This document shows positions 10,124 to 47,596 of a stretch of 64,000 nucleotides of DNA, piece by piece. Source of the DNA: Spirochaetia bacterium (GTDB lineage Bacteria; Spirochaetota; Spirochaetia; CADAEX01); contig OY759746.1 in NCBI GenBank assembly GCA_963662795.1, positions 608,001-672,000 of the forward strand, in the 5' to 3' direction. The notes under the pieces were generated by a model. The model was given only the letters and a program-made list of their open reading frames with translations, was not told the DNA's origin and did not search any database. The position numbers and the translations under genes are program-made. Positions within the stretch are counted from its first letter, which is position 1. The number at the start of each line of letters is the position of its first letter.

Positions 10124-10138
10124 ACAGGCGGTATGTTT

Positions 10139-16039: not shown

Positions 16040-16063
16040 ATTATTTGCTGCAGAGTGCAGACA

Positions 16064-32256: not shown

Positions 32257-32570
32257 TTTATTCTCCGCATATATTTTTCCCTGTCAGTATAAATCAGTAT
32301 AAATCAGGATCAAGACTTAAACAAATATATTTTGGTTTATAAACAGATAATAATCCTATATTCTAATGATTACTTAAGATAATCATTTCAGCATTATCTG
32401 TCATTCAATGATGTGATCCTAAAGCAGCCTTATATACAGGACAGCGGTCCGGCAAGCTTAATATCGGTTTACAGTTCTGTCTTCCAGGCTGCTAAAACAC
32501 AAACCGATTAATTAATTATAAATTGATATTGGAAGGACTGCTCAATCTGATATTTTAAAGTATTAAATAT

Positions 32571-32600
32571 AAAAAACACCTTCTTTAGAAGGTGTTTTTT
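32571..32600 (-). terminator. Terminator downstream of tRNA
   Basis: AAAAAACACCTTC-TTTA-GAAGGTGTTTTTT perfect hairpin. Confidence 0.85.
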
Positions 32601-32601
32601 A

Positions 32602-32675
32602 TGGGCCCACTTGGACTTGAACCAAGGACCACTCGATTATGAGTCGAGGGCTCTAACCAACTGAGCTATAGGCCC
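32602..32675 (-). tRNA. tRNA-Ile2 (anticodon CAT, lysidine type); CCA not encoded
   Basis: GGGCCTATAGCTCAGTTGGTTAGAGCCCTCGACTCATAATCGAGTGGTCCTTGGTTCAAGTCCAAGTGGGCCCA folds as a cloverleaf; ACTCATAATC anticodon arm resembles ileX rather than Met tRNAs. Confidence 0.93.
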
Positions 32676-32855
32676 GTGTTTAATTTACAGTTAATTTATA
32701 TAAACATGGCTCTTTTTGTCAATAGGATTTGCCTTTTTTATAACGACTGATGACAGGTTATTGCAAAGGTAAGGCAGGAGCATCCGCAGAGTGAAAGCTC
32801 CTGTTTATTGTCAAAATCCCTGATTACTGATAAAGTATATGCAAATCTCAATTTC

Positions 32856-32950
32856 AGGTAGAAAAAAAACACAGCCCTGTAGGTAGTCAGGGCGGTCTTC
32901 AGGCAGTTTCCGAAGATCCCGTAACCATCGCAGGATGTCCGTTTTTACCT
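32856..32950 (+). ncRNA. yjdF riboswitch (azaaromatic-sensing)
   Basis: Blocks AAAACAC...GGTAGTC...GTAACC...GGATGTCC enclosed by P1 AGGTAGAAA/TTTTTACCT, directly upstream of a YjdF gene. Confidence 0.85.
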
Positions 32951-32978
32951 CCAATATATTTATATCTGGAGGATTAAA

Positions 32979-33362
32979 ATGGAAAGGGTTGTATCAAACA
33001 TCATCTTTAACGGGCAGTTCTGGATCGCTTTGATTGAAAAATATCAGGAAGACGGCTCCCTGCTGGTCGGCAGGTATACCTTTGGCCCTGAACCTGCAAA
33101 TAATCATCTGCTTGACTTTTACTTGAATAAATATCACCTGTTGAAATTCCATCAATGTGAACCGGGATATAAGGTAAAAAAAGAGTATTCCGGAAAGGAA
33201 ACGGAAAATAACACTGGGAAATCACTCGAGTCATATAAAAAAGAACAAAAAAAATATTTAATGGAAAAGAAAAGAATAAGGAAGATAGAGAAAAAAGCCG
33301 CAGATGAAGATAAATTTATAATGAAGCGGAAAAAAAAGATCAAAAAGAGACGCGGACATTAA
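32979..33362 (+). CDS. yjdF: YjdF family protein (DUF2992)
   Basis: F.GQFW...E, RYTFGPEP, basic C-terminus KKKIKKRRGH; GGAGG RBS. Confidence 0.85.
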   Translation: MERVVSNIIFNGQFWIALIEKYQEDGSLLVGRYTFGPEPANNHLLDFYLNKYHLLKFHQCEPGYKVKKEYSGKETENNTGKSLESYKKEQKKYLMEKKRIRKIEKKAADEDKFIMKRKKKIKKRRGH

Positions 33363-33444
33363 TCAGCCGCATTAAAAACTGCTTCTGCAGGCGTCCTCCC
33401 GATTACCGGTTGACAAATTTTTCCGAATAATAAAACATGCCTTC

Positions 33445-34389
33445 ATGAATGAAAATACTTTGAAAGGCAGCATGATAACTGACCATAAGAATATACTTTA
33501 TACATTTATGCTTGGGGACGGTAAGATAAAGGGATACTTTATCAACGCAACCGAGCTTGTAAACAGGATAAGGGAAACCCACTCACTCGGCGTAATGGAA
33601 ACCCTTCTCCTCGGCCATGCACACATTGGATCCGCCCTTATGGCGGCAACACTGAAAAATAATGAAAGCATAAAACTGAAAATCGAATGCTCAGGGCCTG
33701 TAAAAGGACTTTCAGTCGAAGCTCACTCAAACGGAGAGATACGGGGCTACCTCTTCCAGAACCCGATACCGCTTGAGCCGGACATGAATACTTTTGATAC
33801 ATCACCTGTATTTCAGGCAGGGTTTCTCTCAGTAACAAGATTCGCTGAAAACAATAAAAGCTATTCAGGCCAGGTCATGATTGAACACGGAAGGATTGCG
33901 GAAGATCTTGCGAATTACTACCTCGTCTCGGAACAGAAGAAAACAGCTTTTAACCTGAGTGTCTTTTTTGACAAAGAGGGAGTTCCCAAGGGTGCGGGGG
34001 GGATTTTTCTCCAGACGCTTCCCGAAGAACAGAATATTACAGCTGTACACGGTATCTCTGAGGAACAGGATCTTCAGCAATTGCTTGAAAAAGCTGAAAA
34101 TGTTATAGGGACAATCCCTTCAATCGGTAAATATTTTTCTGAGAATTCAGACGCTGTCAGCTTTATCATGAACGCTTTTTCATCGCTCGGAATAGAGATA
34201 ATCGGATCAGCCCACGTCAATTTCAAATGCAGATGCAGCAGGGAGAGGTTTTTCTCCTTCCTCTCAGCTATGGATAAAAAAGAAATAAAATCAATTCTTG
34301 AGGATGGTGCGCTGCCGCTTAAAGTAACCTGCCACAACTGCAGCACGGATTATTTCTTTGATAAAGAGGAGATTACAAAATGTCTTTAA
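33445..34389 (+). CDS. hslO: Hsp33 redox-regulated chaperone
   Basis: YY..SEQ, AGG..LQ.LP, zinc motif CRCS...CHNC. Confidence 0.93.
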   Translation: MNENTLKGSMITDHKNILYTFMLGDGKIKGYFINATELVNRIRETHSLGVMETLLLGHAHIGSALMAATLKNNESIKLKIECSGPVKGLSVEAHSNGEIRGYLFQNPIPLEPDMNTFDTSPVFQAGFLSVTRFAENNKSYSGQVMIEHGRIAEDLANYYLVSEQKKTAFNLSVFFDKEGVPKGAGGIFLQTLPEEQNITAVHGISEEQDLQQLLEKAENVIGTIPSIGKYFSENSDAVSFIMNAFSSLGIEIIGSAHVNFKCRCSRERFFSFLSAMDKKEIKSILEDGALPLKVTCHNCSTDYFFDKEEITKCL

Positions 34390-34447
34390 TTATGAAAATC
34401 ACAACCTTGGATGGCATATCTGATAAAATATTAACCGGGGTGTATTT

Positions 34448-34695
34448 ATGGAACCTTATCAAAAACGAATTGTAAATAAGAAAATCAAAGTTCTTGAGCA
34501 TTCAGAAAAAACAGGAAATGTTTCTCTAACCTGCAGGTATTTTGAAATATCAAGGCAAACTTTTTATGAATGGGAAATGTTTTATAATTTGCACAGGCCC
34601 CATTATTCACTTTCAGGGAAAACCCCTTTCGAAGTTCTCATGAAAAAGTTAAAATCAGAGAAGAATTGTCACCCTTGGTCATGATCCACACAACA
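34448..34695 (+). mobile_element. IS481-family transposase remnant with internal in-frame deletion
   Basis: N-terminal HTH GNVSLTCRYFEISRQTFYEW fused directly to C-terminal WEMFYNLHRPHYSLSGKTPFE; DDE core absent; ...ACA after the stop. Confidence 0.75.
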
Positions 34696-34725
34696 TCTCA
34701 TCTTAAACATTACAAAACATGACTC

Positions 34726-35910
34726 TTAACATTTGTAAATAGCATCATTTATATCGGGAATTCTTTCAATAGCCTCCATTAATTTTTCTTCACTGTTAAC
34801 AAGTGCAATCCTTACACAATTATATGAATTCCTGCCATATGTTACTCCCGGTGTAACCAGTACCCGGCTTTTTTCCCATAACCTTTTACTGAAATCAAGT
34901 GAATTGGCAATTGGTATTTCAGCCCAAACATAAATGCCCCCATGCGGTGTATGGCATTTCCAGCCTTTTTTTTCAAGCAACGGGATTACGGCATCCCTTC
35001 TGTTTTGATATTTTTTCGACTGTTTTTCATGTATATTATTTTTAAAAAACAGTTCAAGTGCCTTTGCTCCCGCTATCTGTACAGGGGCAAAAACTCCTGT
35101 CGTATAATCAACAAGTGAGGCTCCATAATTCTGCACAATTTCAGGATTTCCGACAATACATGCCAACCTCCATCCTGCCAGATTAAATATCTTTGAAAAA
35201 GTGAAAATTTCAATTCCTGTATTTTTAGCTCCGTTTGCCTGTAAAAAACTGACAGGTTCTCTATTGTCAAATAGAATTTCACCATAAGCATTGTCATGAC
35301 AAACTATATAACCATTTTTTTCAGCAAGAGCGGTTATTTTGTTAAATAAATCAATGTTAATGGTTGTTCCTGTTGGGTTATGGGGGTAATTCAAGTATAA
35401 CAAATCGCAATCACTACGGTCAAAAGCAGCGATATCCGGATTGTAATCATTTGATGAATCAAGGGCATATTCAATTTCCAGACCCCTGGCAATTTTAGCA
35501 GCAATTCTATAGGTTGGATAGCATATATCGGGAAGAAGAACTCCTCTTCCTTCATTTACAAAATTCACTGATAGATCAATAATTGCCCTTTTGGACCCCA
35601 TAATCGGAATAATTTCTTTTTCAGGGTCAAGTGTTACATTATATCTTTTTTTATACCATTCAGCTACAGATTCCCTGAATAACATTACCCCCCATTTCCC
35701 GGCATATTTATGACTACTTTCTTTATGTACTTCCGAACATAAAGTTTGTATTACATCAATTTCAGGAGCACCATCAGGGGATCCGATAGTTAAATCATAC
35801 GTTATCTCTCCATTTTTTATGCTTTTTTTCATATCTTCAAGTATGTGAAAAATATTGGATTCATCCCCAAAACTATTAATCAATGAAGATTTAATATTGG
35901 TTTTCATCAT
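34726..35910 (-). CDS. PLP-dependent aminotransferase class I/II
   Basis: LNYPHNPTG, HDNAY, FSKIFNLAGWR, PG..YG, VRIAL; start ATG 35910 after GGAG. Confidence 0.9.
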   Translation of the reverse strand: MMKTNIKSSLINSFGDESNIFHILEDMKKSIKNGEITYDLTIGSPDGAPEIDVIQTLCSEVHKESSHKYAGKWGVMLFRESVAEWYKKRYNVTLDPEKEIIPIMGSKRAIIDLSVNFVNEGRGVLLPDICYPTYRIAAKIARGLEIEYALDSSNDYNPDIAAFDRSDCDLLYLNYPHNPTGTTINIDLFNKITALAEKNGYIVCHDNAYGEILFDNREPVSFLQANGAKNTGIEIFTFSKIFNLAGWRLACIVGNPEIVQNYGASLVDYTTGVFAPVQIAGAKALELFFKNNIHEKQSKKYQNRRDAVIPLLEKKGWKCHTPHGGIYVWAEIPIANSLDFSKRLWEKSRVLVTPGVTYGRNSYNCVRIALVNSEEKLMEAIERIPDINDAIYKC

Positions 35911-35923
35911 CTTACTCCAGTTG

Positions 35924-36667
35924 CTATATATCAATGATATGGCTTAAAAATGCTTTTGTTCTGTCAGATCCATTACCGGTAAAAAATTCTTTTGGGCTTC
36001 TCGTCTCAACTATATTTCCATTATCAAAAAATGAAATATGAGACGACACTTCTCTGGCAAAACCCATCTCATGCGTAACCACGACCATAGTCATCCCTTT
36101 TTTAGCCAGATTTTTCATAACATCAAGTACTTCTTTTATCATTTCTGGATCCAGCGCTGAAGTTGGTTCATCAAATAAAATTACTTCCGGATCCATGGCA
36201 AGAACCCTGATAATGGCTGTACGCTGTTTCTGTCCGCCTGAAAGCTGATATGGATATAAATCAGTTTTATCTGCAAGACCCACTGATTGAAATAGGCTGA
36301 TAGCCTTTTCTTCTACATTTTTTTTATCCCTTTTTAATATTTTAACCGGGGCAAGAAGTACATTTTCCATAGCCGTTAAATGAGGAAACAATTCAAAATG
36401 CTGAAAAACCATTCCTATTTTAGTTCTGATTCTTCTGATGTTTTTTTTATCAAGTATTTCATCTTTATAAACAATTTCACCGTCATTGATTTTTTCAAGC
36501 CCATTAATGCAATGGAGCAAAGTACTTTTCCCGGAACCGCTTGGACCGCAAATAACATGGACATCGCCTTTGCAGACATTTAAGTCAACACCTTTCAGTA
36601 TTTCCTGATGACCATATTTTTTATGTATATTTTTTATTCTCAGAATTGGTTTTTCATTGTTGTTCAT
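35924..36667 (-). CDS. Polar amino acid ABC transporter ATP-binding protein
   Basis: [37 protein letters not shown]. Confidence 0.95.
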
Positions 36668-36686
36668 ATCAAAAACTCCTTAATAT

Positions 36687-37340
36687 TTAAAACTGCCCGA
36701 TCATTTTCATTTTACCTTTTTTTTCAAAAAATCTTGCAGCAGTGGATAATGTATGACAAAGAATAAAATACAGAAGCATTATATAAATAAATATAATATG
36801 AGGATTCCCGTATGTTTCCATTATTTGTGTACCCATACGGGTTATTTCTACATACCCAATTGCCGAACACATTGCTGTTGATTTTATCAGCAGTATCAGC
36901 TGCCCGATTAAGGCAGGCATGGTCTGATATAAAACCTGTGGTAAAATTATATGCCACATTATCTCAAAGGTATTCATACTTAGTGATTTTCCGGCACTGA
37001 ATTGCCCTGCACTTATTCCAATTATTCCACCACGTATTATTTCAGCAACATAGGCAGTATTAAAAAGAGTAAGAGTAACAGTACTTGAAATAAAAATATT
37101 TCTTACAGGCAGGCCAAAAAAAACAAGTAATAACAGTATAAGGAAAGGGGTACCTCGCATAAACCCAATATATGCTGAAAGTATCTGGTCAACGACAGGG
37201 ATTCGCCTCGATCGGATAAATCCGACAATAATTCCAAAAATAAATGAAAAGAGAAGCGCAGTTAGGGATAGTTTCAGCGTATAAGGAAGTCCTTTTATTA
37301 TTAATAGCCTTATTGCTATAATATGTTTATCTATATCCAT
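36687..37340 (-). CDS. Polar amino acid ABC transporter permease
   Basis: RGTP, AYVAEIIRGGI, ILPQ. Confidence 0.92.
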   Translation of the reverse strand: MDIDKHIIAIRLLIIKGLPYTLKLSLTALLFSFIFGIIVGFIRSRRIPVVDQILSAYIGFMRGTPFLILLLLVFFGLPVRNIFISSTVTLTLFNTAYVAEIIRGGIIGISAGQFSAGKSLSMNTFEIMWHIILPQVLYQTMPALIGQLILLIKSTAMCSAIGYVEITRMGTQIMETYGNPHIIFIYIMLLYFILCHTLSTAARFFEKKGKMKMIGQF

Positions 37341-38001
37341 TATTCGCCCCGCTTTTTAGATAATATTTTTGAATGATATATACTGCCAACTGAAGACTCC
37401 AGAATGTAATATTGTAGAAAATTGCAGCTCCTAAAAAAGTAGTTCCAGGTATCAGATACATACTGTTTAAATATCTTGATGCTGATGTTAACTCTGCTAT
37501 TGCCACAAGCGTTAATAATGAAGTGTCCTTTAAAATATATGAACTTTGCCCGATAAGGCTAGGAAATATACTTTTTAACGTTTGCGGCAATATAACATAT
37601 CTTAATGATTGTAAATTACTGAAACCCAGTGCCAGACTTGCCTTTTTCTGTCCGGGAGAAACAGCTTCGATACCGCCTCTTACAATTTCTGCTATAAAAG
37701 CACTTTCATTCAAAGTAATGGCCAGGATACCTGCAACTGATGCCGGCAGCATTATACCAATATATGGAAGCCCGTAATACATCAGGTATAACTGCACTAT
37801 AAGAGGTGTTTCCCGGAAAAGATCAATATACCATTTAAAAATATTTTTAATAACCGGAAGTCTGAAACTGCATAATATTCCTAAAAAGAAACCAATGATG
37901 ATTGATAACAATATACAAATAAATGTAAATTTTATAGTAACGGCAAATCCATTTAAAAATATTGGGAAAAACCGTATAAAAAGTTTTAAATTAAATTCCA
38001 T
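37327..38001 (-). CDS. Polar amino acid ABC transporter permease
   Basis: FRETPLIVQL, AEIVRGG, ILPQ, LKDTSL. Confidence 0.92.
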   Translation of the reverse strand: MEFNLKLFIRFFPIFLNGFAVTIKFTFICILLSIIIGFFLGILCSFRLPVIKNIFKWYIDLFRETPLIVQLYLMYYGLPYIGIMLPASVAGILAITLNESAFIAEIVRGGIEAVSPGQKKASLALGFSNLQSLRYVILPQTLKSIFPSLIGQSSYILKDTSLLTLVAIAELTSASRYLNSMYLIPGTTFLGAAIFYNITFWSLQLAVYIIQKYYLKSGANNGYR

Positions 38002-38021
38002 AATACTTCCATTGTTAATTA

Positions 38022-38058
38022 TGTTGCTGCCGGTATATAAAAATCACAGCAGCAACAC
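38022..38058 (-). terminator. Intra-operon stem-loop after the solute-binding protein gene
   Basis: TGTTGCTGC...GCAGCAACA inverted repeat between SBP and permease genes. Confidence 0.5.
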
Positions 38059-38073
38059 AACATAATTATTGAA

Positions 38074-38931
38074 TTATATTGATCCCAGCTTACTGTCAGG
38101 GTCCCAGTCCCTATTCATCCACTTCTTATAAAGTTCAGCATATTTTCCGGAAAGTTTGATCTCCTGAAGAAACAAGTCAATACTGTTTTTAAACCCCCAC
38201 TCTCCGTACCCTACAGCAAATCCATATGTCTCTGTTTCATAGAATCCTTCAGGAATTAATTTAAATTCTCCGGGATAAAGCTTAAACATATCTGATGCAG
38301 CAATAGCGGATTCCATAACACAATCAATTCTGCCTGTCTTCAATGCCTCAGACCATTCCATTTTTGACTGAAATATTTTTAAATTTGCCTTTGGGAATTT
38401 TTCCTGAATTAATTTTATATAAACATTCCCTTCAGTTGAAGCAATAGTCATATTTGAATTATTTAAATCAGCGTATTTTTTTACATTTGATTTAACCGGG
38501 AGTATTGCCACTGTGCCGGTGATTAAATAGGGATCGCTTAATGCAATACTTACAGTTCTTGGAATCGAACGGGTCATATGAGCTGCAACAATATCAAAAT
38601 CCCCTTTTAACAGTCCGGGGATGAGAGCTGACCAGTCAACATCCTTAAATTCAACTTTAACACCTAATTTTTCCGCATATAAATTGATCAGGTCAATTAC
38701 AAGTCCCTCGATATTGCCGCTTTCGGGATTGATAAAACCGATAGGCGGAAATTTTGCTCTTACCCCTACCACAATTTTACCATTTTCCAAAACTGTTTTA
38801 AGTGTATCCTTTGCTATTACATTTTCTCCGGACTTCGAATCATTTGCACCGCACCCTGTAAAAAAAGACAGAGCAACAGCAACTGACAACATGATTGCAA
38901 AAAGTTTGAATTTTCTCATAAAAACCTCCAT
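38074..38931 (-). CDS. Amino acid ABC transporter substrate-binding lipoprotein (SBP_bac_3)
   Basis: Lipobox FFTGC, FPPIG, W..LIPGL..G.FD, MT...R. Confidence 0.9.
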   Translation of the reverse strand: MEVFMRKFKLFAIMLSVAVALSFFTGCGANDSKSGENVIAKDTLKTVLENGKIVVGVRAKFPPIGFINPESGNIEGLVIDLINLYAEKLGVKVEFKDVDWSALIPGLLKGDFDIVAAHMTRSIPRTVSIALSDPYLITGTVAILPVKSNVKKYADLNNSNMTIASTEGNVYIKLIQEKFPKANLKIFQSKMEWSEALKTGRIDCVMESAIAASDMFKLYPGEFKLIPEGFYETETYGFAVGYGEWGFKNSIDLFLQEIKLSGKYAELYKKWMNRDWDPDSKLGSI

Positions 38932-38981
38932 TAAAAATTTTTCATTTTATTACTTAAGAGCTCTATTAAAAGGCTCTTGTA

Positions 38982-39875
38982 TTAACCTAAAATATTATAA
39001 TTTTCCAGTAATATTTTTATGCTTCTGTCTATTTCGACATCAGGAACAACTGCGGGTAACCTGTTGTTTCCGACTGATAGATCTTTTAAATAAAGAGCTC
39101 TTTTCACTAATGCAGGGGCATAACCAAGCTTATATAATGATTCACGGAAAGAAGATAATCTGCTTTGAGCTTTTTCAGCCTCAACCATGTTCCCATCAGT
39201 AGACGATTTATAAATCAGGTTAATCCATTCAGGAACAACATTGGCAAGGCCGGAAACACATCCGGTGGCTCCAAGCTGAAAACCTTTTAAAATCAGATTA
39301 TCCGGCCCGGTATATATTTCAAAATCTTTTTTTCCGTTATCCCTGATAGAACAGTACGCTTTCATATTTTCAATATTCCCGCTGGTATCTTTTATTCCCC
39401 TGAAATTCTCATGTTCAGAAAGACGGGCTACAGTTGCAACATCAACAGGATTATGGGTAAGATTTGGTATATCATATAAATAAACAGGCGTATTAAGTGA
39501 ATCAGCAAGCATGGTAAAATGCTGGTAAATTCCTTCCTGAGTACATTTAATAAAATAAGGAGTAATTGCAGCAATTCCGTCAACTCCGCATCTTTCATAT
39601 TCCCTTGCAAGCCTTATTGTTTCAAATGTTGAAGGGTATCCGGCATTGGCGAATACTTTTACCCTCCCCGCAGCTTCGTTAACCACAGTTTCAACAATTT
39701 TGACCCTCTCTTCAAAAGAAAGTGCAGAAAAATCACCGTTCGTGCCGGAGCAGAAAATATTATTTCCGGCATTGATTTGTTTTCTTACCTGCTTTCTTAA
39801 GGAATCATAATTAACTGTTTCATCGTTGTTATAGCATGTAACTAAAGCCGTAAATGGCTGGGTCGTTTTAATCAT
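38982..39875 (-). CDS. Dihydrodipicolinate synthase/N-acetylneuraminate lyase family aldolase
   Basis: GTNGDF, ITPYF, LYDIP, Schiff-base Lys in GIKDTSG. Confidence 0.88.
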   Translation of the reverse strand: MIKTTQPFTALVTCYNNDETVNYDSLRKQVRKQINAGNNIFCSGTNGDFSALSFEERVKIVETVVNEAAGRVKVFANAGYPSTFETIRLAREYERCGVDGIAAITPYFIKCTQEGIYQHFTMLADSLNTPVYLYDIPNLTHNPVDVATVARLSEHENFRGIKDTSGNIENMKAYCSIRDNGKKDFEIYTGPDNLILKGFQLGATGCVSGLANVVPEWINLIYKSSTDGNMVEAEKAQSRLSSFRESLYKLGYAPALVKRALYLKDLSVGNNRLPAVVPDVEIDRSIKILLENYNILG

Positions 39876-40896
39876 TATTCCCTCCCAGTTTTATAGCATA
39901 ATCTATTGCATTTATCATACTGGTCTCATTTGCCGTACCCTTACCCGCCTTGCCGAAAGCTGTCCCATGATCAACAGAACACCTGATTATTGGCAGTCCG
40001 AGGGTAATGTTGACACCGGAGACATCAAGCCATTTGTTTTTTTCCTGATCAAAAACAAAACCAATAAGCTTAAGCGGTATATGCCCCTGATCATGATACA
40101 TGCATACCACCATGTCAAACTGACCTCCCCTGGCCTTTGAGAAAACAGTATCTGCAGGAAGAGGTCCTGTTACATTTATACCTTCTGATAACGCTTTTTC
40201 AATTGCCGGAGTTATTTCTTCAATCTCTTCCCTTCCGAACATTCCATTTTCACCGGCATGGGGATTTAACCCCGCTACAGCAATACGCGGATTTACAAAT
40301 CCCATTTTTTTCAGGACTTTATCCGCAAGACAGATTACATTATATACTCTTTCCTTTTTAACTTTTTTACAGGCTTCCATCATCGATACATGTGTTGAAA
40401 CATGCACAACCATTAACCCTTCACCCGCAAGCATCATCGTGTAATCTTTTGTTCCCGTAAAATGAGCATATATTTCAGTATGTCCTGCGTAATGGAATCC
40501 TGCCAAATTGATTGATTCCTTATTTATTGGCGCGGTTACCGTAGCATCAATTTCTTTATTTATGGCAAACTCAATGGTTTTTTTTATGGATTCAAATGCT
40601 GCACGTCCGCATTCTGCAGAAACTTTTCCGAATTCAAATTCTCCTGTTTTACAGAGTGAATGCTCATAAACATCCAAAAATCCATGCCTGTATATCCCTT
40701 TTTCAATTTTATCAATTGAATTTATTCTCAGATCAGCACCAGCTATTTTATTAGCCTGTTGCATTATATCCGAGCTTCCAATTACAAGAGGGTTGCATTT
40801 ATCATAGATAGCTTTTTTATTTAAAGCTTTTATGATAATTTCAGGGCCTATACCTGCAGGATCTCCCATTGTAATGCCGATTAAAGGTTTTCTCAT
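39868..40896 (-). CDS. pdxA: PdxA2-type 4-phospho-tetronate/4-hydroxythreonine-phosphate dehydrogenase
   Basis: TMGDPAGIGPE, TAPINKE, GHTE, GLNPHAGE, MYHDQGH, SVDHGTAF. Confidence 0.93.
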   Translation of the reverse strand: MRKPLIGITMGDPAGIGPEIIIKALNKKAIYDKCNPLVIGSSDIMQQANKIAGADLRINSIDKIEKGIYRHGFLDVYEHSLCKTGEFEFGKVSAECGRAAFESIKKTIEFAINKEIDATVTAPINKESINLAGFHYAGHTEIYAHFTGTKDYTMMLAGEGLMVVHVSTHVSMMEACKKVKKERVYNVICLADKVLKKMGFVNPRIAVAGLNPHAGENGMFGREEIEEITPAIEKALSEGINVTGPLPADTVFSKARGGQFDMVVCMYHDQGHIPLKLIGFVFDQEKNKWLDVSGVNITLGLPIIRCSVDHGTAFGKAGKGTANETSMINAIDYAIKLGGNND

Positions 40897-40898
40897 TT

Positions 40899-42059
40899 TT
40901 ATCCCCTTAATACCTTTTTATAAATATTTTCAATATCACTTACTGTCATCTCTTTCGGATTATTATCCAGAAGTCTTCTGACATTAAAAGCTGATTCTGA
41001 TAACGAAGGTATATCACTGACAGGAATATTAAATTTATCAAAGCTTTCCTGTATTGCAAGATCATCAACAAGTCCATATAAATGCCAGATAAATAAATCA
41101 GCTTTATCCCCAGTTTTCATATGTTTATCAGCAATTCCGGCAGTTTCTGCAGCAATTGCGAGTTTATCGATTATTTTTTCCTTGTTGAAATCCATTACCG
41201 GTGCAAGCAGTACTGCATTTGCAACTCCATGCGGTACCCTGTATTTTCCTCCAAGAGGGTATGAAAGGGCATGTACCGCGGTTGTGCCGGAAGATGCAAT
41301 TGCCGCTCCGCCGTAAAAAGAGGCAAGCAGCATCGAAGATCTGGCTTCTATATTGGAACCTTCAATAAAAGATTTTTTTAAAGAAGAAAGTATGAGCCTG
41401 ATTCCTTCCAGCGCTATCATATCACTGAACAGATTTGCCTTTTTTGATATATAGCATTCCAGAACATGGCATAGGGCATCAACGCCTGTCGATGCAGTGA
41501 GGTGTTTCGGAAGAGATACAGTAAGCTGGGGATCAAGAATTACATAGTCAGGAAGAAAAAATCTGCTGATAATACCTTTTTTGATATTTTCTCCCCTTAT
41601 TGCAATAATTGAATTTGGGGTAGCTTCAGAGCCTGTTCCTGAAGTAGTCGGTATCATGACTACCGGTATCCCTCTCTCATTTACTCCGTTTTCAATTATT
41701 TCAGAAACACTTGAGTTGTTTTTAAGCATAACCGATATCAATTTTGCAGTATCCATCACACTGCCGCCACCTACCGCAATTATCAGGTCAATTCTCATGC
41801 CAAACAAGTTTTTATTTATTCCTGTAACTTCATCATCATACGGCTCTGCAGGAATACCATCGATAATTATTATATTGCCAGCAATAGTCTTGATATTGTT
41901 CAGTACCAAATCACAAATACCAGATTTTCTAACGCCCTGATCAGTCAGTAATATTATTTTTCCGTCTTTAATATTTTTTGAAATTTCGTTTAATTTTGAA
42001 ATCTCTCCAAAGCCGAAAAAAATATTGCCTGGAAGAGATGAACTGAATTTATCTGACAT
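40899..42059 (-). CDS. Iron-containing alcohol dehydrogenase
   Basis: GGGSVMDTAK, PTTSGTGSE, DALCH, HALS, PHGVAN. Confidence 0.92.
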   Translation of the reverse strand: MSDKFSSSLPGNIFFGFGEISKLNEISKNIKDGKIILLTDQGVRKSGICDLVLNNIKTIAGNIIIIDGIPAEPYDDEVTGINKNLFGMRIDLIIAVGGGSVMDTAKLISVMLKNNSSVSEIIENGVNERGIPVVMIPTTSGTGSEATPNSIIAIRGENIKKGIISRFFLPDYVILDPQLTVSLPKHLTASTGVDALCHVLECYISKKANLFSDMIALEGIRLILSSLKKSFIEGSNIEARSSMLLASFYGGAAIASSGTTAVHALSYPLGGKYRVPHGVANAVLLAPVMDFNKEKIIDKLAIAAETAGIADKHMKTGDKADLFIWHLYGLVDDLAIQESFDKFNIPVSDIPSLSESAFNVRRLLDNNPKEMTVSDIENIYKKVLRG

Positions 42060-43317
42060 TATCAATGACTCCTATTAATTGCAGTATTTTAATTATTGCG
42101 TCTTCTTCTCCAAAACCGCCGGCTTTTGTGACTATGGATATATCCCCCATATTTTCTTTTCGTATCAATTTCATAAGAGGTATTCCGGGAAGTATTTCCC
42201 TGTCAAATATGACACATTCGGTTTCAAGAAATGATACAACTTCATAGGCAGTATCACCTCCTGTAATAAAAAGCGTATCAATACCATATTCAGCGATGAG
42301 ATCCCTTATAAGTTTGCCCAGAAAACCAGAAACAACTTTACCGTCTTCCGGCTGGGGAAGATTTTTCTTAATCGGGGTTTTATCACTGCTGGCTGTTGTT
42401 CTGATCACTACAGGCAGCAAATTGCTGTTTTCAGTTATTTTAGCTTTTATCCGCTCAATTTCTCCGGCAGGATCTGTTTTCATTCTAGCAATATCAAGAA
42501 GAATTGAAAGATTTTCAACTTCTCTGGCAAATCTGTCACCCTGAAGATTGCTTGTCCTGGTAAGACTTCCAATAACTATTAGAACTTTTTTCCCTATTGA
42601 TATTTTTTTCCCATTATGATTGTCCTGTTTTGAACATAATGCCTCTGCCATACCTGAAGATCCTGCGATGAGTATTTCACTGTCAGTTTCTATTGAAGAA
42701 ATAATTTTCAAATCATTTATCGTTTCTGCATCTGCAATAATTACCTTTTTACCGTTGTTAATCTGATTGTAAAATTCCTTAAGAAAATCAGCCTCACCTT
42801 TCCTGATTACAGAAAGACCGATATGCCCTGTCTGATGGCGGAATCTGTTTTCAATTATTTTAACAACATTTGAGCTGATTACAGGATTAAATGGATCATC
42901 ACCGGATTCAGTGTTTTTGACAGGCATACCGTTTGCATAGCATATCCCGTTTTTTACTGTTCTGTTGTTACGGGGAGCAGAAGGAGCAACTAATGCGGCC
43001 CTAAAACCGGCAGCATCGATAATAGCTTCAATCTCGATACCTATATTGCCCCTCATAGTTGAATCAATTTTTTTAAATATCTGCTTTATTCCATGGGAAA
43101 CACAATCAGCAGCCACATCGTAAACTTTTTTATAGGCAGTTGCTTCATCATCAAATCTTGATTCAGTATTAATTACCTTTACATCACATTCTTTATATTT
43201 TGATGCCGTATTGTTATTAATAAATAATACCGGCATATATCCGGCTTTGCGGTAATGAATGGCAGAATCGGCGGAACCTGTAAAATCATCAGCTATTATA
43301 CATTTTTCTGGTTTCAT
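42049..43317 (-). CDS. Four-carbon acid sugar kinase (DUF1537, DtnK/DenK family)
   Basis: IADDFTGSAD, KKIDSTMRGN, TGGDTA, TKAGGFG. Confidence 0.93.
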   Translation of the reverse strand: MKPEKCIIADDFTGSADSAIHYRKAGYMPVLFINNNTASKYKECDVKVINTESRFDDEATAYKKVYDVAADCVSHGIKQIFKKIDSTMRGNIGIEIEAIIDAAGFRAALVAPSAPRNNRTVKNGICYANGMPVKNTESGDDPFNPVISSNVVKIIENRFRHQTGHIGLSVIRKGEADFLKEFYNQINNGKKVIIADAETINDLKIISSIETDSEILIAGSSGMAEALCSKQDNHNGKKISIGKKVLIVIGSLTRTSNLQGDRFAREVENLSILLDIARMKTDPAGEIERIKAKITENSNLLPVVIRTTASSDKTPIKKNLPQPEDGKVVSGFLGKLIRDLIAEYGIDTLFITGGDTAYEVVSFLETECVIFDREILPGIPLMKLIRKENMGDISIVTKAGGFGEEDAIIKILQLIGVIDNVR

Positions 43318-43331
43318 TATGGCAACTTAAC

Positions 43332-43348
43332 TGCATTTTCTGTGCCAA
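43332..43348 (-). promoter_or_regulatory. Sigma54 (-24/-12) promoter of the catabolic operon
   Basis: Minus strand TTGGCACAGAAAATGCA = GG-N10-GC; adjacent to a sigma54 activator gene. Confidence 0.8.
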
Positions 43349-43453
43349 TTTATGAATCCAGGAATTTATTAATGATAACTCCATACATTATAATTATTTA
43401 TTTATATTTTTTTTATTAAATATTTATTGAATCACAATACTAATGGTGATTTT

Positions 43454-45373
43454 TTAATCATCTATGATAGATAATTCACCAGCTAATTTCTTTTTCAAAG
43501 TGTTCCTGTCAATGACAAGACGTCTGGCTGTTCGTGATATATTCCGGTTTTCTTCTTCAAATATTTTTTTTATAATGCGGTTTTCTATTTCTGCAAGCGA
43601 ACCTTCACCTATGCTGTAATTACCAGATAAGGCTGAAGCAGTAAATAATCTCTCAAGATTTTTTTCTGCATACTCATTCCCATTCATATTATAAAGAATA
43701 GAAAACCGTTCCGCCATATTTTCCAATTCACGGATATTTCCCGGCCAATAGTATTTTTTCAGTATTTTTTTAAAACTACTGCTGAGTGAATTAAGTGCAA
43801 TTGTATTCCCGCTATATTTTTTAATATATATCTCGAATATCGGAAGTATATCCTCTACCCGCTGCCGAAGGGGAGGAATATTTATTTCGAGGACATTCAA
43901 CCTGTAATAAAGGTCTTTTCGGAATTTTCCCTTTAAAATTTCTTCTTCAAGGTTCCGGTTTGTAGCTGCTATGATTCTAACATTGATCGGGATAATCTTG
44001 TCATCGCCTATTCTTCTGATCTCTTTTTCCTGAAGAACACGAAGAAGTTTTGTCTGCAGATTTATATCAATTTCACTGATTTCATCAAGAAAGATTGTTC
44101 CATTATGCGCAGCCTCAAAAAGCCCATGGTGACCGCTCTTTGAGGCACCGGTAAAAGCACCCTCGATATAACCGAAAAGTTCACTTTCAAGAAGATTATC
44201 AGTCAAGGCAGCACAATTTACAGCTATAAACGCTCCGTCGTGAACAGGACTGTTGTTATGAATGCTTTGTGCAACAAGTTCCTTACCAGTACCGGTCTCT
44301 CCATATATTATAATATTACTCCTGTTTCTGCTGTACTGTTTTGCTATGGCAATGCAGTCTTTCATACAGCTGGATACATAGAAAATATCCTGAAAAGTGT
44401 ACCTGGCCTGATGACCTTTGTTTTGAAGCTGTTTCCGTATTGTTATTTCAAAGTCACGGATTGTCTCGGATTTCAGAAATGAAATAACAAGTCCTTCTGT
44501 TTTTCCACTTATAATAATGGCACGTGTATTATAGGCAAAACTCCCGCAGGAAAGATTAAAAATACCACCTGCCGATAGATTGTTTTTTTTAATCAAATTC
44601 TCATATTCTATTGACGGAATAATATCGCTAATATGTTTTCCTGGAATTGTTCTGAATTCTGTGCCAAGATAAGCCAATCCCTGCTGGTTAATCTGCCTTA
44701 TTATCCCTTTTTTATCTATATTGATGATACCTTCACTTACTGAATTCAAAATAGCATTTATTTTAGCAGCATTTTCCAGATGGTCTTTTGTACTTTTATA
44801 GATCAGTACTGCTTTTTCAAAAGCTTCTTTTAACGCTTCTCTGCCTGATTCTATCAAAAGATAATTCAAATTATATTCTTCAGCTTTTTTTACTGATATT
44901 ACATCCCCGATAACAATATCAGCTTCCTTGTCTGCAATTTCAGACATTATATCAGGCAAATCCTGATCACTTTCAAGAGTAAATATTTCAGCAGGAATAT
45001 CCAGGATATTGCAAATGGCTTTTGCAGGATGCGTTAAATTTTCAAAACCTACTATTGCTATTTTTTTTCTCAATCCTTTTAATTTCTTAAGATTTTCAAG
45101 AAGATCATAAAAAGAAACTCCTACTTCAATTACAGGTATTTCCAGCTGTTTTTTTATAAGGCTGGCAGTTCCGCCCCTGCTTACAAAAATACATCCGTGT
45201 TCATACCTGTATCTGTCAGCAATTTTAACTCCTTCAGAAAGGTCTCCAATGTGAGTCTTGATCTCTATATCATAATCATCAGCAATACTATCCGCAATAT
45301 TCTTAAGTTTTTCATATGGAGCTATAAATACAATCATTACTATATAATTATAACATAAAAAGCAGACACTCAA
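43454..45373 (-). CDS. PrpR-like sigma54-dependent transcriptional activator (start probably MIVFIAPY)
   Basis: PrpR_N (SRGGTA), PAS, GETGTGKE, GAFTGA, FLDEI, WPGNIREL, Fis HTH. Confidence 0.93.
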   Translation of the reverse strand: MSVCFLCYNYIVMIVFIAPYEKLKNIADSIADDYDIEIKTHIGDLSEGVKIADRYRYEHGCIFVSRGGTASLIKKQLEIPVIEVGVSFYDLLENLKKLKGLRKKIAIVGFENLTHPAKAICNILDIPAEIFTLESDQDLPDIMSEIADKEADIVIGDVISVKKAEEYNLNYLLIESGREALKEAFEKAVLIYKSTKDHLENAAKINAILNSVSEGIINIDKKGIIRQINQQGLAYLGTEFRTIPGKHISDIIPSIEYENLIKKNNLSAGGIFNLSCGSFAYNTRAIIISGKTEGLVISFLKSETIRDFEITIRKQLQNKGHQARYTFQDIFYVSSCMKDCIAIAKQYSRNRSNIIIYGETGTGKELVAQSIHNNSPVHDGAFIAVNCAALTDNLLESELFGYIEGAFTGASKSGHHGLFEAAHNGTIFLDEISEIDINLQTKLLRVLQEKEIRRIGDDKIIPINVRIIAATNRNLEEEILKGKFRKDLYYRLNVLEINIPPLRQRVEDILPIFEIYIKKYSGNTIALNSLSSSFKKILKKYYWPGNIRELENMAERFSILYNMNGNEYAEKNLERLFTASALSGNYSIGEGSLAEIENRIIKKIFEEENRNISRTARRLVIDRNTLKKKLAGELSIIDD

Positions 45374-45472
45374 ATATATATATTTGGCATTGATCTCTAT
45401 TAACTTTCAGGAGTACATCATTATGCATAAATTTCTTGACAGATAAATCATTGTACCTGAAAATAAATCACG

Positions 45473-45820
45473 ATGAAACTGCTTGTGTTTGTCTTAAACA
45501 AGGAAGAGCTTCTCGAAGAAGTGCTTGCCGCATACCTTGAGGCAGGCATTCCAGGCGCTACAATTCTTGATTCCGAAGGAATGGGGAGATTTCTAACCTA
45601 TGAAGTTCCCCTTTTTGCCGATTTCAAGGAATTCATGAAGGGAAATAAACCATACAATAAAACAATTTTCTCTGTCATTCAGAACGAAAAATCGATTCCC
45701 CGTCTTGAAAAACTGCTTGATAAGGTCTGCGGCGGCCTTGATGAACCTGGAACAGGAATTCTCTTCACTCTCCCTTTAGATTATGCCAGGGGCCTTGTGC
45801 CTGCAGATACGGAGGATTGA
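45473..45820 (+). CDS. PII-like (GlnB-fold) signalling protein
   Basis: GIPGATILDSEGMG and PGTGILFTLP motifs; 115 aa. Confidence 0.72.
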   Translation: MKLLVFVLNKEELLEEVLAAYLEAGIPGATILDSEGMGRFLTYEVPLFADFKEFMKGNKPYNKTIFSVIQNEKSIPRLEKLLDKVCGGLDEPGTGILFTLPLDYARGLVPADTED

Positions 45821-45821
45821 T

Positions 45822-46283
45822 TTGCTTAAATTATCCAGGATGCTTGATAAAGAGTGTATTAAACTTGAGATGAGCGCTGTCAGGAAAAGGGACGCGATTT
45901 CGGAACTCCTCGAAGTCCTTAAAGATAACGGGAAAATAGATGATACAATACCGCTGCTTAACGATATCTGCGAGAGGGAAAAATCAGCTTCAACCGGAAT
46001 AGGCTATGGAATAGCCATCCCGCATAAAATTGTTGACGGGCTTGAAAAAACAATAATAGCGTTTGGAAGAAAAAAAGAGGGGATCAATTTTGATTCAATT
46101 GACGGGAAACCGGTCTCCCTCTTTTTCCTTATACTGGGGAAGGAAGGAAGCACGGGAAGTCATCTGCGGCTCTTAAGCAAACTGGCAAGACTTCTTCATG
46201 ACCCTGATTTCAGGGAATCACTTTCCAGCGCGCAGTCGGCTGAGGATATCATTAACGCCTTTGCCCGGGAGGATGATGAATGA
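45822..46283 (+). CDS. PTS EIIA (Fru/Ntr-type) domain protein
   Basis: RE...STGIG.GIAIPH, FDSIDGKPV, HL.LLS.LA; TTG start after GGAGG. Confidence 0.9.
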   Translation: MLKLSRMLDKECIKLEMSAVRKRDAISELLEVLKDNGKIDDTIPLLNDICEREKSASTGIGYGIAIPHKIVDGLEKTIIAFGRKKEGINFDSIDGKPVSLFFLILGKEGSTGSHLRLLSKLARLLHDPDFRESLSSAQSAEDIINAFAREDDE

Positions 46284-46792
46284 ACCTGGCTGCAAAATGG
46301 AAAATCACAAGGATATTACTTACTTCAGTTTATCTTTTCGCGGGGTGGATGCTGTTTACGGGAAGCCTTAATCCCTTTTCCATGGCTATGGGCCTTTTTT
46401 TTTCAGTATTAACAGCGCGTTTAACCTACAGCCTCTTCATAGATGAAAAAGAGGCTGAAAGACGGGGGCTTGTCTTTAAGGTTCATTTTCTTGTTTTTTA
46501 TCTTTTATTTCTATTATTTAAAATGTATGCCTCGAGCTTTGCGGTTTTATACAATGTCATAAGGGGCAACATAAATCCGAGAGTTGTTCATTTCAGAACA
46601 AGGCTCAAATCCGACATTGCGCGCGTTATCCTTACAAACTCAATTACGCTTACTCCCGGAACAATAACCTTAAGCCTTGACGATGACCATCTGATAGTCC
46701 ACTGGCTTGAGGCAAAGACAACACATTCGCGCTATGCCGGGGAACTTATCAAGGGTAAAATGGAAAAAATACTGAAAAGGATTTTTGTATGA
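46280..46792 (+). CDS. mnhE: Na+/H+ antiporter subunit E (MrpE/MbhA-like)
   Basis: INPRVV, LTNSITLTPGTIT, LIVHW. Confidence 0.9.
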   Translation: MNLAAKWKITRILLTSVYLFAGWMLFTGSLNPFSMAMGLFFSVLTARLTYSLFIDEKEAERRGLVFKVHFLVFYLLFLLFKMYASSFAVLYNVIRGNINPRVVHFRTRLKSDIARVILTNSITLTPGTITLSLDDDHLIVHWLEAKTTHSRYAGELIKGKMEKILKRIFV

Positions 46793-47061
46793 ATACGCAG
46801 ACCGCATTCAGCGTTATTATCTATCTTTTTATCGGTTCCGGCGTTATAAGCCTTTACCGGGTTATCTCCGGCCCTACAGCAGCAGACCGCCTGATCGGGT
46901 TAAATATTATATCAGCCCAGATACTTGCGGTTCTGGTTCTGTTCGCTGCTATGGAAAACCTGCATGTTTATCTTGATGTGGCGCTTGTCTACGATATATT
47001 CGGATTTGTCGGCATACTCGCTATCGCAAGGTATACCGGAAAAAAAGAAGAGTTAAAATGA
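46789..47061 (+). CDS. mnhF: Na+/H+ antiporter subunit F (MrpF/MbhB-like)
   Basis: RVISGPTAADR, YLDVALVY...FVG...ARY. Confidence 0.9.
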   Translation: MNTQTAFSVIIYLFIGSGVISLYRVISGPTAADRLIGLNIISAQILAVLVLFAAMENLHVYLDVALVYDIFGFVGILAIARYTGKKEELK

Positions 47062-47366
47062 CAGAATGGATAGTCTTCGGTTTTCTGATTCTGGGAGCCG
47101 TATTTAATCTGATGGGGCTTCTCGGCGTCCTTATTTTTCCTGATCCCTATACGCGGCTTCAGGCTTCATCGACATGCAGCACTACCTCGGTTATGTCAGT
47201 ATTTATTGCGGCAATGATAGAATCAGGCATCTCGGCCGTTACCGGAAAGATACTTGTAATAACCCTGTTCTTTTTCATTTCAAGCCCGGTATCAGCCCAC
47301 ATCATAGCGTGTTACGCCTGGAATAATGAAATAATCCCCTGGCGGCGAAAGGGGGGACCGGAATGA
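47058..47366 (+). CDS. mnhG: Na+/H+ antiporter subunit G (MrpG/MbhC-like)
   Basis: FPDPYTRLQA, SPVSAH. Confidence 0.9.
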   Translation: MTEWIVFGFLILGAVFNLMGLLGVLIFPDPYTRLQASSTCSTTSVMSVFIAAMIESGISAVTGKILVITLFFFISSPVSAHIIACYAWNNEIIPWRRKGGPE

Positions 47367-47596
47367 CAACACTGCTTCTTGCCCTGCACGTCCTGCTTGC
47401 TGTTATAATCCTTGTATCACGTAATATGCTGACCGCGGTAATCCTCCTTGCGGTTTTAAGCCTTTTCAGCAGCCTTCTGTTCTTCATACTGCACGCGCCT
47501 GATGTCGCACTCACAGAGGCGGCCGTAGGAGCAGGCGTCTCTACTTTTCTTTATATCTGGATAATACGGAAAACTGAAATGGAGATAAAACCTTGA
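47363..47596 (+). CDS. DUF4040 subunit (MbhD-like)
   Basis: APDVALTEAAVGAG. Confidence 0.88.
   Translation: MTTLLLALHVLLAVIILVSRNMLTAVILLAVLSLFSSLLFFILHAPDVALTEAAVGAGVSTFLYIWIIRKTEMEIKP

Follow-up and report, generated by a model that had tools for sequence, protein, structure and literature searches.

A candidate catabolic operon joining amino-acid import and transamination to tetronate-type enzymes in a Spirochaetia bacterium

The subject of this work is a locus in a 64,000-nucleotide stretch of contig OY759746.1 of a Spirochaetia bacterium; the whole stretch is called the window below, and coordinates without further label refer to it. Between positions 34726 and 45373 coordinates and Pfam domains define ten open reading frames (ORFs), all on the reverse strand, which encode in 5' to 3' order a transcriptional activator, a DUF1537 kinase, an iron-dependent alcohol dehydrogenase (Fe-ADH), a PdxA-family enzyme, an aldolase similar to dihydrodipicolinate synthase (DHDPS), the substrate-binding protein (SBP), two permeases and the ATPase of an ATP-binding cassette (ABC) importer, and an aminotransferase. 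We propose that the locus is an inducible catabolic regulon, which would convert an unusual hydroxylated amino acid to pyruvate, dihydroxyacetone phosphate (DHAP) and CO2, a reading of the sequences which we believe about as readily as we doubt it. The four enzymes kinase, Fe-ADH, PdxA and aldolase form a conserved module, which is widespread and apparently undescribed. An earlier interpretation of the same DNA made without database searches (the sequence-only reading) had described this gene content under sigma-54 control by a PrpR-type activator, as the ORFs, the Pfam domains and the promoter motif confirm, and had taken the pathway as a candidate undescribed one. We did not find the gene set in the literature either; the genome-neighbourhood data of Zhang et al. 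2016 and Thiaville et al. 2016 may list DHDPS or Fe-ADH neighbours, and the main text of a study of sigma-54 regulons in Clostridiales (PMC6615313) contains no PdxA, DUF1537, dihydrodipicolinate or threonate.

The proposed route and its enzymes

In the proposed route, the activator would bind an effector through its PrpR_N domain and would thereby become able to open the sigma-54 promoter in front of the kinase gene. The SBP and its ABC importer would take up an unusual alpha-amino acid, most likely hydroxylated and dicarboxylic with about seven carbons, and the aminotransferase would convert the imported 2-amino acid to a 4-hydroxy-2-oxo acid. The DapA-like Schiff-base aldolase would cleave this compound to pyruvate and a four-carbon acid-aldehyde. 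Reduction of the aldehyde group to a primary alcohol by the Fe-ADH would yield a tetronate, for example D-threonate, or, if the four-carbon piece carries an amino group, 4-hydroxythreonine instead. The DUF1537 kinase would phosphorylate the new primary alcohol (the 4-hydroxyl of the four-carbon hydroxy acid), and the PdxA2-type enzyme would oxidise the neighbouring hydroxyl and decarboxylate, turning 4-phospho-tetronate into DHAP and CO2. The route would be redox-neutral, since one NAD(P)H would be spent at the alcohol dehydrogenase and one regained at PdxA. We infer the substrate, all enzymatic steps and their order; in a linear route of this kind each conserved gene would have one step. The order (transamination, aldol cleavage, redox adjustment, phosphorylation, PdxA2 reaction) is that of the sequence-only reading, and it has comparative support in that it fits the modular pattern of front ends described below.

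From the kinase gene to the aminotransferase gene the neighbouring genes overlap or are separated by gaps of 2-72 nucleotides (nt), and judging by this spacing they are probably co-transcribed. The activator gene is separated from the kinase gene by 136 nt, which hold the sigma-54 site. A scan for promoters and terminators inside the operon gave no signal above chance.

To our knowledge, gene clusters with the DUF1537/PdxA2 pair have so far been described solely as short pathways for the use of four-carbon acid sugars in free form. In passages of two articles citing Zhang et al. 2016, a DUF1537 kinase (DtnK or DenK) and PdxA2 are described as the enzymes of D-threonate and D-erythronate catabolism (PMC9997740, PMC7954711). 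The locus shares with these systems the same two adjacent families, a kinase whose best model is D-threonate kinase, the expected products DHAP and CO2, and a PdxA which does not serve the synthesis of pyridoxal phosphate (PLP). It differs from them in that neither of the two window proteins reaches its equivalog cut-off, and in that the pair is accompanied by two further enzymes, a DapA-like aldolase and an Fe-ADH, by which a longer precursor would be converted to the tetronate within the cell. A further difference is the presence of an amino-acid ABC importer and an aminotransferase, instead of a tripartite ATP-independent periplasmic (TRAP), tripartite tricarboxylate (TTT) or KdgT transporter, and the sigma-54 control of PrpR type. 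By analogy, the locus would extend the DtnK/PdxA2 tetronate pathway at its upstream end, and the comparison suggests that in many cases the DUF1537/PdxA2 pair forms the last part of a longer pathway, with the tetronate made in the cell from a larger 2-oxo acid.

The kinase (42049..43317) is a DUF1537 four-carbon acid-sugar kinase with both domains at full length, SBD_N at residues 7-227 (Pfam, 1e-53) and NBD_C at residues 246-408 (4.9e-25). Its top NCBIfam model, the best of three kinase models, is D-threonate kinase (NF047819, 244.8 bits, under the cut-off of 450), the 3-oxo-tetronate kinase model gives 167.4 bits, and the closest solved chains are uncharacterised DUF1537 proteins. The Fe-ADH (40899..42065; Pfam Fe-ADH and ADH_Fe_C) scores best with ErcA, lactaldehyde reductase, sulfoacetaldehyde reductase and 4-hydroxybutyrate dehydrogenase, with each under the cut-off, and these top models are all aldehyde/primary-alcohol enzymes. 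The PdxA-family oxidative decarboxylase, which is PdxA2-like (39868..40896), has a full-length PdxA domain (Pfam, 2.1e-110, 369.1 bits), scores 360.3 against TIGR00557 (cut-off 290.35) and stays with 342.7 under the cut-off of 583 for D-threonate 4-phosphate dehydrogenase (NF002891). It is the sole PdxA of the source genome (G000, a single contig, estimated to be 98% complete). Neither PdxJ (PF03740) nor PdxS was found in this genome, therefore the operon PdxA cannot feed PLP synthesis, and the organism probably relies on vitamin B6 salvage. Elsewhere in the genome a second DUF1537 kinase gene directly follows a class II aldolase-family gene (G000:C1:3732271-3734153; L098 8272-10154), the pairing expected for a 3-oxo-tetronate kinase and its decarboxylase, and a gene for an LpoB-family lipoprotein lies near this second kinase.

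The aldolase (38982..39875) is a class I (Schiff-base) aldolase of the DHDPS family (Pfam DHDPS, 1.8e-65) and represents a distinct subfamily. Its score with the dapA model TIGR00674 is borderline (206.7, cut-off 206.15), its second-best family model is that of the DapA-like HpaI aldolase acting on C7 diacids (TIGR02313, 137.7 vs a cut-off of 396.7), and its nearest solved relatives are all DHDPS enzymes. In an alignment of 12 subfamily sequences with E. coli DapA, whose numbering is used here, Thr44, Tyr133 and the Schiff-base Lys161 were invariant. Thr45 was replaced by Asn and Tyr107 by Phe throughout the subfamily; we take both to be functional positions in DapA. Arg138, which in DapA binds the carboxylate of the four-carbon acid-aldehyde aspartate semialdehyde, was kept in 10 of the 12 sequences. 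The enzyme is thus like the DapA/HpaI-like aldolases (TIGR02313) in its fold, in Lys161, Tyr133, Thr44 and, in most members, Arg138, and in the type of reaction, pyruvate and a four-carbon acid-aldehyde being interconverted with a seven-carbon 2-oxo-4-hydroxy diacid. It is unlike them in the Asn and Phe replacements, in the Leu which the window protein has for Arg138, in having no adjoining dapB, and in the direction of the reaction, for which we propose cleavage. The lysine-pathway DHDPS gene of the source genome is not the operon copy; it lies at C1:3024150-3024995 and adjoins DapB_C (3025054-3025440). A dapA-dapB pair elsewhere and the missing PdxJ and PdxS argue against a role of the operon in lysine or PLP synthesis.

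The importer is made up of a lipoprotein SBP (38074..38931; Pfam SBP_bac_3, 8.4e-30), two permeases (37327-38001 and 36687-37340; BPD_transp_1) and an ATPase (35924..36667; ABC_tran, 6.4e-35). The permeases score 98.7 and 77.5 with HEQRo_perm_3TM (TIGR01726, cut-off 42.2), thus the system has the family-3 SBP, the two HEQRo permeases and the one ATPase which define a polar amino-acid importer. It reaches no substrate-specific cut-off, the SBP staying under those of the Gln, Arg, cystine and Glu equivalogs of NCBIfam. The subfamily of the SBP is rare, with 21 other clusters at E<=1e-40 in 5.8 billion proteins. Cys23, Thr116, Arg117 and Arg121 are invariant in the family, and the protein is probably a lipoprotein, because the invariant Cys23 can be read as the lipobox cysteine. 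The closest solved chains are AncCDT-1 and AncQR, followed by amino-acid ABC binding proteins including ArtJ and the glutamine-binding protein. In the alignment with AncCDT-1 the Arg of the carboxylate motif is kept, an acidic residue stands at the ammonium-binding position, and there is a further Arg which is invariant in the family; we take these to be ligand positions from the alignment and from the corresponding residues of the lysine/arginine/ornithine-binding (LAO) protein.

The aminotransferase (34726..35934) is a class I/II PLP enzyme (Pfam Aminotran_1_2, 3.1e-50). Its top NCBIfam models are those of LL-diaminopimelate aminotransferase (TIGR03540 and PRK09276, 333.5 and 332.7 bits, under the cut-offs of 593 and 507), the alanine and aspartate transaminase models give 257 and 263 bits, and the closest solved chain, 2x5d, is itself a 'probable aminotransferase'. 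The Arg residues of the SBP, its acidic position and the DapL-like character of the aminotransferase together suggest that the substrate of the importer may be an acidic, likely dicarboxylic alpha-amino acid with a 4-hydroxyl.

Front end and back end in other genomes

The sequence-only reading had held that the ABC and aminotransferase genes belong together with the genes of the back end, and this view is strengthened by a second genome (G398, 92% complete), which belongs to a different family than the source genome. The same ten families are found in G398 in another arrangement, their genes forming two divergent operons with sigma-54 promoters on either side of the control region of an orthologous activator. 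One of them, the front operon, encodes the activator (47% identity to the window protein), the SBP (55%), the permeases (65% and 60%), the ATPase (66%) and the aminotransferase (62%), the last being again the next gene after the ATPase; the divergent operon encodes the kinase (31%), the Fe-ADH (41%), PdxA (56%) and a DHDPS-family protein (40%). Sigma-54 sites stand before the kinase gene (TGGCAC-AATAA-TTGCA, a perfect match) and before the SBP gene (TGGCAT-AGAAG-TTGCT). The recurrence of the pairing under an orthologous activator despite the rearrangement speaks for a real coupling, and the sequences support the view that in the two genomes both halves form one regulon, in which the front end is functionally coupled to the back end. 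The DHDPS gene of the G398 operon is the only one in that genome, where DapB was not found at the stated completeness, therefore it is not the lysine gene there either.

Orthologs of the aminotransferase were detected in two of the 401 genomes of a class sample, the source genome and G398, and in none of 150 further genomes of the G398 family; the SBP was absent from the 400 other genomes of a phylum sample. A plasmid search with the aminotransferase gave 58 rows, the best 8 of which were generic matches at about 34% identity. Between G000 and G398 similarity is higher for the proteins of the front end than for those of the back end, and the window aldolase is closer to its alphaproteobacterial orthologs (51-54% identity) than to the G398 protein (40%), which suggests module shuffling or independent assembly rather than simple inheritance. 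In G398 a gene of the alanine racemase family (G398:C3:22255-23418; L094 10256-11419) shares 11 nt with the end of the aminotransferase gene, and this position suggests that the sigma-54 promoter of the transport operon drives its transcription too. We considered this gene as a proof of a D/L amino-acid substrate and rejected it as such, since it is the only full-length member of the family in that genome.

Relatives of the aldolase are widely distributed. The search of 5.8 billion proteins gave, among the matches listed, at least 119 other relatives at 51-76% identity, and the named ones among these matches were all alphaproteobacterial (Ensifer, Sinorhizobium, Rhizobium, Shinella, Thalassospira, Falsirhodobacter). 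Matches at E<=1e-60 were present in 156 plasmid records, including 65 of Sinorhizobium, 23 of Pantoea and 17 of Agrobacterium. When 30 relatives were searched with the aldolase, the best match had 37% identity and was DapA-like only, and a single-protein scan of genome contigs yielded at least one match, at 35%. We also tried the replacement of Arg138 by Leu, seen in the window aldolase, as a marker of the amino-acid front end; it was rejected, as G398 keeps the Arg, and the Leu is also present in P0002, a relative of the window aldolase whose gene precedes one for TctC.

A metagenome scan with an 18-sequence alignment of the aldolase gave 131 relatives; 80 loci were kept, and those of at least 12 kb, 41 in number, were searched by tblastn. 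Fe-ADH and PdxA were each found in 39 of the 41 loci and a BNR_2 protein in 32, followed by TctC (9), TctA (8), a D-2-hydroxyacid dehydrogenase and an Ldh_2 dehydrogenase (7 each) and a PrpR-type activator (3); the front end of TTT transporter and 2-hydroxyacid dehydrogenases is thus seen in 7-9 loci. The window SBP, first permease and aminotransferase and the G398 racemase were each found in none of the 41, and the SBP, the aminotransferase and the second permease of the window in none of all 80 loci. The DUF1537 kinase was present in at least 11 of the 41 loci, a lower bound, because the 9-kb flanks miss a kinase gene lying about 9.5 kb from the aldolase gene, as it does in Shinella, where it is at the edge of the retrieved stretch. 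On plasmids of Shinella and Qingshengfaniella the aldolase ortholog stands beside genes for a family-5 ABC system, a four-carbon acid-sugar kinase, an Fe-ADH, a GntR regulator and an 'exo-alpha-sialidase'; the annotation includes PdxA for Shinella but not for Qingshengfaniella, where it was found by tblastn.

The four genes occur in the window order (kinase-ADH-PdxA-aldolase) with a PrpR-type activator in loci L014 and L089, with such an activator and in the order kinase-PdxA-ADH-aldolase in L079, and in the window order on the short contigs L074 and L088, where the activator was not detected. The front ends of these loci are of different kinds: a family-5 SBP (SBP5) ABC system with a BNR_2 protein in L089, a TTT system with a D-2-hydroxyacid dehydrogenase in L079, and an SBP5 gene in L014. 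Locus L014 has two PdxA paralogues (9907-10860 and 15455-16477), 45% and 59% identical to the window PdxA, one of which follows the aldolase gene and the other the Fe-ADH gene; PALP and Cys/Met-PLP genes lie there upstream of the aldolase gene.

Where loci were annotated or scanned, the SBP5 ABC genes stand beside BNR_2. The predicted model of the BNR_2 protein (pLDDT 79.6) has its best fold matches in sialidases of glycoside hydrolase family 33 (GH33; TMq 0.65-0.72), with an identity to the solved sialidases of 11-17% among the listed Foldseek matches, and a sequence search against the PDB gave matches at the level of the Asp-box only (E about 1e-3). Sialidases release 2-keto-3-deoxy acids. 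The three types of front end, characterised by the aminotransferase, by 2-hydroxyacid dehydrogenases and by the sialidase-fold protein, could each yield a free 2-oxo acid. It is a tentative possibility, to which we give less than even credence by a good measure, that the four-gene set represents an undescribed, widespread pathway for seven-carbon 2-keto-3-deoxy diacids with three interchangeable front ends.

Such a pathway would have a counterpart in that of glucarate and galactarate, which uses the GarL aldolase, the tartronate-semialdehyde reductase GarR and the glycerate kinase GarK. In both a 2-keto-3-deoxy diacid would be cleaved to pyruvate and an acid-aldehyde, the aldehyde reduced and the resulting hydroxy acid phosphorylated, whereas the Gar substrates are one carbon shorter (C6 giving C3), the enzymes belong to unrelated families (class II aldolase, beta-hydroxyacid dehydrogenase, glycerate kinase), and the last step there is not decarboxylating. 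The BNR_2 variants can further be compared with the pairing of GH33 sialidase and NanA, as they too combine a sialidase-fold protein with a lyase of the DHDPS family; this applies to those variants and not to the window, in which there is no sialidase or BNR_2 gene. The likeness of BNR_2 to sialidases is at the level of the fold, at the low identity given above, and the downstream enzymes suggest a four-carbon acid and not an N-acetylhexosamine.

A doubtful candidate for the seven-carbon acid of the module is 3-deoxy-D-lyxo-2-heptulosaric acid (DHA). By stereochemical reasoning from its D-lyxo configuration, an aldolase would split DHA into pyruvate and D-threuronate, and the latter would on reduction become D-threonate, in agreement with D-threonate kinase as the best model of the kinase. 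D-threonate is the substrate to which the names of the NCBIfam models D-threonate kinase and D-threonate 4-phosphate dehydrogenase refer. Passages of two articles place DHA in chain D of rhamnogalacturonan II and in the scales of prasinophytes (PMC13501991, PMC3355577), and among the matches listed in a literature search on heptulosaric acid there was no account of its breakdown. If the pathway is as proposed, it would offer a possible route by which DHA-type sugars of pectin and algal scales, whose catabolism is unexplained, are broken down, and the large group of mis-annotated 'dihydrodipicolinate synthase family', 'PdxA' and 'exo-alpha-sialidase' genes of rhizobial and Pantoea plasmids would gain a function. 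It would also show plainly how a single catabolic back end can be served by three entry steps of different chemistry. The window variant would then imply an unrecognised amino-acid nutrient, namely a natural 2-amino analogue, a hydroxylated compound of the aminopimelate type, available in the subsurface.

Alternative explanations

Several observations weigh against the proposed route. Of the specific NCBIfam equivalogs the operon proteins reach only TIGR00557 (pdxA) and, by 0.5 bit, dapA. We know of no natural 2-amino-4-hydroxy seven-carbon diacid which would fit the route, thus the substrate class is hypothetical. In the window aldolase and in the 76% identical P0002 Leu stands at the position of Arg138, and both carry Lys at position 110, which is occupied by Ser, Thr, Ala or Gly in the others; Lys110 may or may not offset the loss of Arg138, and therefore the aldehyde product may be a different one here. 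The closest relatives of the aldolase use other front ends, the gene of L012 (76% identity) being followed by a TctC-type gene and that of L014 accompanied by an SBP5 system. The SBP5 proteins of the BNR_2 variant resemble the peptide binders DppA, OppA and MppA, which does not readily suit a sugar-acid glycoside, and for this reason among others the identification of DHA must be taken with caution. The racemase gene of G398 may, as the only full-length one of its genome, be a housekeeping gene. Finally, the sequence-only reading had made its case depend on the linkage of the two halves being conserved in other genomes: it does recur in G398, but as a whole the amino-acid front end is rare. 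The class sample of 401 genomes has it twice and the phylum sample of 401 once, and it was found at none of the 80 metagenome loci.

It was also part of the sequence-only reading that 4-hydroxythreonine might be the imported compound. In a route of this kind, which makes do without the aldolase, 4-hydroxythreonine or a close four-carbon amino acid would be taken up and phosphorylated by the kinase to 4-phosphohydroxythreonine, the aminotransferase would produce the 2-oxo acid by the reverse of the SerC reaction, and reduction to 4-phospho-tetronate would be followed by decarboxylation by PdxA2; alternatively, PdxA would act on 4-phosphohydroxythreonine directly, with the aldolase and the Fe-ADH as a side branch. 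A passage of PMC7954711 states, citing Thiaville 2016, that DUF1537 enzymes can make 4-hydroxythreonine 4-phosphate, a PdxA substrate, and the aminotransferase and the D-2-hydroxyacid dehydrogenase, the variable partners, are of the enzyme classes which the same source gives for SerC and PdxB in PLP synthesis. The SBP of amino-acid type and the PdxA score over the TIGR00557 cut-off would also suit such a route. We nevertheless think it unlikely, and 4-hydroxythreonine as the import gains no support from the comparison, as the aldolase and the Fe-ADH would have no necessary role, yet Fe-ADH is found with the aldolase in as many of the 41 loci as PdxA. Moreover, the sialidase-fold front end of 32 loci would go unexplained, the Fe-ADH is like aldehyde/primary-alcohol enzymes and not like 2-oxo-acid reductases, and the aminotransferase is of class I/II whereas SerC is of class V. 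A distinctly unlikely variant on the side of larger substrates is the degradation of a hydroxylated diaminopimelate, or of another diamino diacid of the cell wall, by lysine biosynthesis run in reverse with the DapL-like and DapA-like enzymes. The products would be pyruvate and 3-hydroxy-aspartate-semialdehyde, the latter giving 4-hydroxythreonine, its phosphate and, via PdxA, 3-amino-2-oxopropyl phosphate. This would agree with LL-diaminopimelate aminotransferase as the best models of the aminotransferase, with the nearest solved relatives of the aldolase being all DHDPS enzymes and Arg138 being kept in most members, with the PdxA score over the pdxA equivalog cut-off, and with the similarity of the SBP5 protein of L089 to several binding proteins, the binders of murein peptides MppA and DppE among them. 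Against it counts that we know of no hydroxylated diaminopimelate of the needed kind, that 3-amino-2-oxopropyl phosphate would lack an onward enzyme, PdxJ being not found in G000, that Pfam gives no DapB- or DapF-like gene in the operon, and that the front ends with TTT and 2-hydroxyacid dehydrogenase suggest hydroxy analogues and not diamino compounds.

The transcript could also serve two functions, the ABC importer and the aminotransferase handling an ordinary amino acid (e.g. alanine or glutamate/glutamine) for nitrogen or amino groups, and the other four genes degrading an acid sugar which enters by another carrier. Sigma-54 regulons are often related to nitrogen. Elsewhere the back end is combined with front ends of very different kinds, the present combination is rare, the aminotransferase also scores with the alanine and aspartate transaminase models, and in G398 it is followed by that sole full-length gene of the alanine racemase family, all of which would be in line with separate functions. 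What makes us regard this as improbable is the recurrence of the pairing in G398 with an orthologous activator and two sigma-54 promoters, despite rearrangement and unequal divergence; in addition, the SBP belongs to a rare subfamily and is under the cut-offs for the common amino acids, and a second transporter is encoded neither in the operon nor next to it. A biosynthetic role, in PLP or in lysine/diaminopimelate synthesis, is very hard to maintain. The pdxA and dapA models are reached, and there is some similarity to the PdxB-SerC-PdxA segment of PLP synthesis, in which a 2-hydroxyacid dehydrogenase or an aminotransferase occurs with PdxA as well and four-carbon phospho-acids are the likely PdxA substrates. 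However, PdxJ and PdxS were not found in the nearly complete source genome, a dapA-dapB pair is present elsewhere in it (C1:3024150-3025440), DapA positions Arg138, Thr45 and Tyr107 are all replaced in the window aldolase, the aminotransferase is of class I/II and not V, and the importer, the kinase, the aldolase and the Fe-ADH, together with inducible sigma-54 control, suggest catabolism.

Control region and genome setting

The activator gene (43454..45373) encodes a sigma-54 enhancer-binding protein of the PrpR type, with the domains PrpR_N (Pfam, 1.8e-47), Sigma54_activat (2e-67) and HTH_8 (2.1e-05); both the Walker A sequence GETGTGKE and the GAFTGA loop are found in its translation, and the true start is likely the internal Met at residue 13. 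Its score with the PrpR equivalog TIGR02329 (353.6) is under the cut-off of 499.2, therefore it is not PrpR itself. The -24/-12 element TGGCAC-AGAAA-ATGCA (43332..43347, reverse strand) has one mismatch to TGGCAC-N5-TTGCW and is the sole match with at most one mismatch in the window. With up to two mismatches 21 sites were observed vs 26.6 expected, thus the pattern by itself is not significant, looser matches being no commoner than by chance. We call it a promoter because of its position after the activator gene, the presence of rpoN in the source genome and the perfect equivalent site in G398.

The GC of the -12 element is 16 nt upstream of the ATG of the kinase gene, without a Shine-Dalgarno sequence in between (43317-43347), therefore the kinase transcript would be nearly leaderless. 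The equivalent kinase promoter of G398 is 27 nt upstream of the gene and is followed by GAGGTGAG. Inverted TCACC/GGTGA half-sites were noticed by eye upstream of three sigma-54 promoters, one in the window (43425-43455) and two in G398 (L094, 17715-17745 and 15800-15825), and may be binding sites of the activator. A search for inverted repeats as activator sites returned AT-rich repeats only; these half-sites are shorter than the seed of that search.

We considered whether the operon is part of a mobile island and rejected this, as there are no mobile-element genes in its flanks, which hold genes for Hsp33, a DUF2992 protein, a hybrid kinase, PTS EIIA and an Mrp antiporter. On the downstream side (29521-34389) are the 911-residue hybrid histidine kinase, with PAS, HisKA, HATPase_c and receiver domains, the DUF2992 protein and Hsp33. 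On the other side (45783-50304, forward strand) EIIA_2 of a phosphotransferase system (PTS) is followed by the subunits MnhE, MrpF, MnhG, MnhB and Proton_antipo_M of an Mrp-type Na+/H+ antiporter, and the G+C content of this region is 0.43-0.47 vs about 0.35 in the operon. One other assembly holds the whole stretch in near-identical form, with 4 differences over 11.2 kb, and short identical or near-identical fragments of the operon (34300-45500) were seen in a second sample with the same organism label and in subsurface and groundwater metagenomes.

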